Below are positions 16,227 through 17,885 of a stretch of DNA of 64,000 nucleotides, one piece after another. The DNA lies in NCBI GenBank assembly GCA_012720075.1, contig JAAXZE010000030.1, positions 24,734 through 88,733 on the forward strand, given 5' to 3'. The DNA comes from Clostridia bacterium (GTDB lineage: Bacteria > Bacillota > Peptococcia > Peptococcales > BICA1-8). A model generated the notes under the pieces. The model did not search any database, was not told the origin of the DNA, and saw only the letters and a list, made by a program, of their open reading frames with translations. The position numbers and the translations under genes were made by a program. Position 1 is the stretch's first letter. The number at the start of each line of letters is the position of its first letter.

Positions 16227-17885
<1,659 letters not shown>

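Follow-up and report, generated by a model that had tools for sequence, protein, structure and literature searches.

Stop codons can be reassigned to sense: UGA to tryptophan in Mycoplasma and to glycine in Gracilibacteria/SR1, UAG to glutamine in some phages, and UAG to pyrrolysine. In-frame stops at conserved sense positions, such as accompany these reassignments in bacteria and phages, are also seen at the locus described here, where pyrG and the adjacent argS each carry one in-frame TAA (ochre) codon. The known reassignments, however, concern UGA or UAG, extend to most genes, specify a single amino acid and coincide with the loss or alteration of the release factor for that codon, and none of this applies here. 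Ochre codons can also be read by mutant tRNAs, the ochre suppressors, among them those of the supB/supC/supG type in Escherichia coli and of the sup-3 type in Bacillus subtilis. Nonsense alleles of essential genes need such a suppressor tRNA, and one tRNA with a UUA anticodon would serve both sites at this locus; the classical cases, however, are laboratory strains, whereas the present DNA comes from an uncultured environmental member of the Bacillota and no suppressor tRNA lies within the window (by which is meant the whole 64,000-nucleotide stretch that was analysed).

Comparison can also be made with the ordinary ochre mutation, of the kind called as an internal-stop pseudogene. The likeness is close, in that a single base has changed, the expression signals are intact, the change is absent from conspecifics and an annotation pipeline would flag it. 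The present case nevertheless differs from an ordinary internal-stop pseudogene in that the residue hit is invariant and the gene essential or nearly so, in being joined by a second stop in the adjacent and strictly essential argS, and in that neither gene shows any other decay. For the residue concerned, there is a precedent in E. coli, where the CTP synthase variant CtpS E155K can be purified and has a defect described as specific to feedback inhibition through CTP binding (Barry et al. 2014, eLife, PMC4126345). The residue is the same one, the Glu of the LPFLEAIRQ motif, although E155K is a laboratory missense change to Lys and the codon here is a stop.

In the window, pyrG (CTP synthase) lies on the forward strand at 16272..17885, with 537 codons running from a TTG start to a TAG terminator at 17883-17885, and is interrupted at codon 156 by an in-frame TAA at 16737..16739 (+), the first base of which, at 16737, is T instead of the G of GAA. 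An earlier note on this DNA, made from its letters, had proposed that the TAA replaces the Glu of LPFLEAIRQ, and alignment to solved CTP synthases bears this out: the stop column corresponds to Glu156 here and to E. coli Glu155, counted along the E. coli chain in the structure alignment, and it is occupied by Glu in 124/124 retrieved homologues that cover the site. The two open reading frames which had been joined in that proposal (16254-16739 and 16782-17885) do share one frame and are split by the single TAA. The frame of the first was thus correctly read, but its ATG at 16254 is not the start of the gene; both the N-termini of homologues and the conspecific gene call place the start at TTG 16272.

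Read through the stop, the pyrG product aligns with solved CTP synthases over residues 1-530 (E = 3e-206 for 9kao and 3e-196 for E. coli 1s1m) and is colinear with the enzyme throughout, an N-terminal synthetase domain being followed by a C-terminal class-I glutamine amidotransferase (GATase) domain. Close homologues carry PF06418 and PF00117, and in the translation the GATase motifs for Cys and for His/Glu read GICLGMQ and FHPEF, respectively. As a complete CTP synthase gene it fails only in lacking an uninterrupted frame, on account of the TAA at codon 156. Nor does it have the character of a decaying pseudogene: there is a single lesion, and the sequence otherwise matches the conspecific protein at 536/537 residues.

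The promoter, ribosome-binding site and terminator that the earlier note had assigned to pyrG were all recovered, by promoter scan, from the sequence and by RNA folding, respectively. A sigma-70-type promoter, TTGACA-17-TAGAAT, at 16193..16221 (+), agrees with the consensus at 11/12 positions (it is a consensus match only) and is the top-scoring promoter match within 14000-18400. The ribosome-binding site, GGGGAGGGG, as read from the sequence, is at 16256..16264 (+), 7 nt 5′ of the TTG start. A probable intrinsic terminator follows the gene at 17889..17917 (+), with a 13-bp hairpin and then UUUUCGCU; it rests on the RNA fold (−18.4 kcal/mol), and the simple terminator scan does not include it. 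Even so equipped, the pyrG allele as written is null, because its product ends after 155/537 residues, partway through the N-terminal synthetase domain, and has none of the glutamine amidotransferase domain. The 64-kb window contains neither a second pyrG, for which the earlier note had advised looking, nor a second argS.

The neighbouring argS (arginine–tRNA ligase; 14411..16087, +) has 558 codons, of which codon 164 is an in-frame TAA at 14900-14902, confirming that each of two adjacent essential genes has one ochre codon, as had been pointed out before. This TAA aligns to Tyr in solved ArgRS structures, and among 182 homologues the same column contains Tyr in 110, Phe in 66, His in five and Cys in one. 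argS has its own terminator, detected by the terminator scan as a 15-pair hairpin and T-run at 16127..16160 (+), and argS and pyrG are therefore separate transcription units. A systematic search of same-frame open segments found a single stop dividing these two genes and no others in the window. The remaining same-frame pairs were rejected as disrupted genes, since they are ordinary adjacent genes of operons (hisD/hisB, the Mrp/Mbh antiporter subunits and atpD/atpC).

The DNA comes from a Peptococcaceae-like organism. Its best named relatives are metagenome-assembled genomes (MAGs) labelled Peptococcaceae, Peptococcales or Clostridia, and Desulfonispora thiosulfatigenes, at 79%. Two syntenic relatives, L001 (Logan SRR31940684) and L002 (JGI 3300001682), have ~78–84% nucleotide identity to the window over argS and pyrG. 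In both, argS is intact (558 aa), as is pyrG (537 and 534 aa); where the window has its stops, they read GAA or GAG in pyrG and TAT in argS. Each TAA of the window is therefore one substitution from the sense codon that would be expected.

Sequences from the same species allow the pyrG site to be examined much more closely. P0121, which clusters at 90% identity with the top pyrG match, is identical to the window's pyrG product at 536 of its 537 residues and has Glu at the stop position. At the nucleotide level, contig L007 (Logan SRR31940690) was compared with window positions 15527-17976 (2450 bases) and contig L008 (Logan SRR18360461) with 15604-17977 (2374 bases), and for each the sole mismatch was at 16737, where both contigs have G (giving GAA) and the window has T. 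Read support for GAA was what the earlier note had named as an observation that would overturn its interpretation, and at the level of the species this has been borne out, GAA being present in two independent read-derived conspecific assemblies. Being derived from other samples, and from strains that differ by 0–0.33%, these contigs show the normal state of the species rather than the reads of this assembly. Exact-protein lookups with the intact neighbouring genes likewise recovered short contigs 99.7–100% identical to the window, from JGI 3300012949, SRR18360461, SRR18360460 and SRR31940690. The truncated products, namely the 367-aa and 161-aa pieces of pyrG and the 163-aa piece of argS, are missing from a collection of 153 billion gene positions that does include neighbouring proteins from this species. 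On the evidence of these sequences, the pyrG stop is confined to this record, and GAA is what the working gene of the species has at the site.

For argS, a conspecific codon 164 was sought by several routes. Exact lookup with a Tyr-restored full-length argS, a search via the upstream neighbour gene, a metagenome pattern scan and ten guessed contig-truncated prefixes each gave no match, and homology searches with the full-length protein and with residues 1-371 returned no conspecific sequence (best match 89%). For the pyrG site, exact-pattern scans that left the codon itself free gave no match in GTDB representative genomes or JGI metagenome contigs, and the matches listed by a protein-guided scan of genome contigs were all relatives at 71% identity or less.

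Over the 13,077 bases that could be compared between the window and conspecific contigs, there were 19 variable sites: 10 synonymous, four conservative missense, four intergenic and the one pyrG nonsense change. Ordinary variation within the species has, from these counts, a purifying-selection profile, and the nonsense change is an outlier that does not fit it, because the residue is invariant and the surrounding 2.45 kb are without any other difference. A second non-synonymous transversion private to the window, conservative in this case, was seen in tal, where codon 73 (23835; C to A) is ATG (Met) in the window but CTG (Leu) in both conspecific Logan contigs, and Leu in 27/29 homologues. 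Upstream of fba, at 22368, the window is without 5 nt (TTGAA) that are present in the conspecific JGI contig L003; this indel is just upstream of the likely fba start (~22386), probably in the 5′ untranslated region.

A 247-nt inverted repeat has its left arm at 14145..14391, a copy of an intergenic repeat family rich in GATGCATC, and its right arm at 17948..18194, 87% complementary to the left, with outer arms at 14102-14136 and 18206-18240. It brackets exactly argS and pyrG, the two genes bearing TAA; no link to the stops was found. The conspecific Logan contigs end inside the right arm, at 17976 and 17977. The inverted-repeat element looks insertion-like (MITE-like), because relative L001 has no counterpart for window positions 17967-18338, nor thus for the roughly 340 nt that separate pyrG from the next gene in the window. 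The repeat family as a whole is ~300 nt long, intergenic and not in Rfam, and further copies near 23290-23560 and 62950-63150 complete a four-copy alignment. In the window there are 22 copies of the element GGATGCATC, built around the perfect palindrome GATGCATC, where 0.26 would be expected; it is grouped in intergenic clusters with a spacing of ~29–30 nt and occurs in both orientations (14182-14278, 18091-18157, 19473-19510, 23429-23466, 28160-28252, 47083-47178 and 63083-63091, with an isolated copy at 37141), and is rare in the related loci fetched. It may be either an array bound by a protein or an intergenic repeat that is mobile. A second and unrelated intergenic direct repeat, of ~150 nt and ~82% identity, is found at 24280-24470 (between tal and glpX) and at 38350-38540 (upstream of prfA), and has no Rfam match at the gathering threshold. 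Between rpmE and prfA, a ten-gene Mrp/Mbh-type cluster (30684-38127), all ten genes of which are intact, comprises MnhE, MrpF, MnhG, MbhD, MbhE, MnhB and NuoK-like subunits and three large antiporter-like subunits. An apparently gene-free 1-kb stretch at 29.6–30.7 kb was rejected as such, as it holds rpmE (ribosomal protein L31).

Could the two stops be decoded as sense? A change in the genetic code, with TAA reassigned as a sense codon, draws its sole support from the two in-frame TAA codons at conserved positions. TAA is nevertheless the commonest genuine terminator of the 62 genes in the window (TAA 29, TGA 20, TAG 13), and an internal TAA occurs in only 2 of these ~62 genes. The two cases moreover call for different amino acids: no single decoding rule restores both normal proteins, because the TAA in argS stands for Tyr and that in pyrG for Glu. 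Release factor 1 (RF1), which reads UAA and UAG, is encoded at full length by prfA (38607..39707, +), which matches the NCBIfam TIGR00019 equivalog with 566 bits (cutoff 423) over profile positions 5-358 of 361 and has the GGQ motif at residue 242 and the tripeptide PTT, in VPTTES. PrmC, the RF1 methyltransferase, is also intact and adjoins prfA; no gene for RF2 was found in the window. With conspecifics using GAA as well, reassignment of TAA is excluded as far as a 64-kb window allows, and we regard an altered code here as scarcely credible.

A different proposition is that the stops are programmed, regulated readthrough or reinitiation at ATG 16782 tuning the output of argS and pyrG for growth control. 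Two neighbouring housekeeping genes linked to growth rate, with exactly one ochre codon each, might be taken to suggest this, as might the presence of an ATG 42 nt downstream of the pyrG stop. Conservation of the stops would then be expected, yet conspecifics have GAA with identical flanks and the relatives have GAA/GAG and TAT. The same identity of the flanks in GAA-bearing strains means that no readthrough context has co-evolved with the pyrG stop. The contexts of the two stops (TTG TAA GCC and GGC TAA TCG) have no common motif, and a shared motif around both mutated bases, such as a methylation site, was rejected by inspection. No RNA family or structured element was detected: no Rfam family reached threshold anywhere in the window, and a permissive Rfam scan of 13900-18500 gave only a chance SAM_alpha match inside argS (E = 0.5). 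Neither argS nor pyrG is preceded by a leader RNA or T-box in the Rfam scans, and that possibility was likewise rejected. Reinitiation at Met170, for its part, would leave the product without residues 156-169, which belong to the conserved nucleotide-binding segment, and would break up the synthetase domain, and judging by the structure alignment it is not plausible that the reinitiated product would be an active enzyme. Programmed readthrough is very unlikely, and programmed stops of either type seem to us highly improbable. The window as a whole carries no hallmarks of recoding, and the suggestion in the earlier note that paired ochre codons signify biology rather than coincidence finds no support, given the conspecific GAA, the disparity between Glu and Tyr, the place of TAA as main terminator and the intact RF1.

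Both ochre codons could instead be real, with the strain surviving by means of an ochre suppressor tRNA or of second gene copies outside the window. A suppressor would have a UUA anticodon, derived from a Lys, Gln, Tyr, Glu, Leu or Ser tRNA, and would give low-level readthrough of both stops; in the alternative, intact argS and pyrG would lie elsewhere, with cytidine salvage possibly covering for pyrG. Several observations are compatible with real mutations. The record is clean, with no frameshifts and no near-invariant violations in the neighbouring genes, which sits uneasily with simple error; both stops are TAA, so that one suppressor could rescue both; Tyr, Phe, His and Cys are all tolerated at the argS column; and, by analogy with E. 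coli E155K, which could be purified, the pyrG position would tolerate substitution. Suppression would be the only route to a functional product from the pyrG allele of the window, and nothing in the window shows suppression. The 64-kb window contains no tRNA gene at all, and pyrG and argS each occur in it once. Efficient suppression of ochre codons would be costly where TAA ends 29/62 genes; RF1 is intact and conspecific strains have GAA; and stops that were accumulating freely would be expected to be scattered among less constrained genes, rather than to fall in two adjacent essential ones. That both codons are real and are survived in one of these two ways seems to us possible but doubtful.

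Were Lys or Gln inserted at codon 156, the analogy with E155K suggests that the enzyme would probably be active but without feedback inhibition by CTP. We give only a small chance to the specific case in which the strain lives on a natural ochre suppressor tRNA and has a CTP synthase substituted at the Glu155 equivalent, with a deregulated CTP supply. If true, this would mean that dependence on a suppressor has arisen naturally in an uncultured organism, and a stop that was truly decoded would represent rare natural suppression of UAA in essential bacterial genes, of interest to research on the genetic code.

In the account that we prefer, the T at 16737 has no biological meaning. The change at pyrG codon 156 is a single G-to-T substitution (GAA to TAA), with no decoding mechanism attached. 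The base would be wrong in the record, through an error of consensus, assembly, polishing or later editing; less likely, the record would have captured a very recent or minor non-functional variant. We consider it probable that one or other of these, an error of the record or, with lower likelihood, a recent or minor null variant, explains the T. As between an artefact and a mutation in the source DNA, we infer that an artefact is most likely.

This preference for an error in the record has points against it. The record is otherwise clean, and the stops fall in adjacent essential genes; both facts count against it. No frameshifted gene was found in the window, and fba, tal, glpX and rho showed 0 violations in 367 near-invariant columns, although for a modest error rate this test has low power. 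In pyrG the only mild near-invariant violations are E164 and I388, both of them common to the conspecific P0121. Of random coding substitutions in this sequence, ~4.4% make a stop and 2.0% make TAA, so that two nonsense errors would imply ~45 random substitution errors per 64 kb; so noisy a record is neither borne out nor firmly excluded by the data. From the same substitution rates, the chance that both stops would be TAA is ~0.2 by simple arithmetic. Two random events placed on 64 kb would lie no more than 1.84 kb apart with a probability of ~6%. The adjacency of the argS and pyrG stops is thus mildly unusual under any random model, and it points to no mechanism. A signature of oxidative damage (G-to-T/C-to-A) was entertained when the first 11 differences between the window and its conspecifics looked transversion-rich, and was dropped once further contigs had been added, these showing a 100% identical stretch and mostly transition SNPs.

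The practical value of the finding, with the T at 16737 read as a probable error of the record, is as a quality flag on that base and on the argS stop at 14900-14902. For the organism itself, annotation should not count pyrG and argS as lost.
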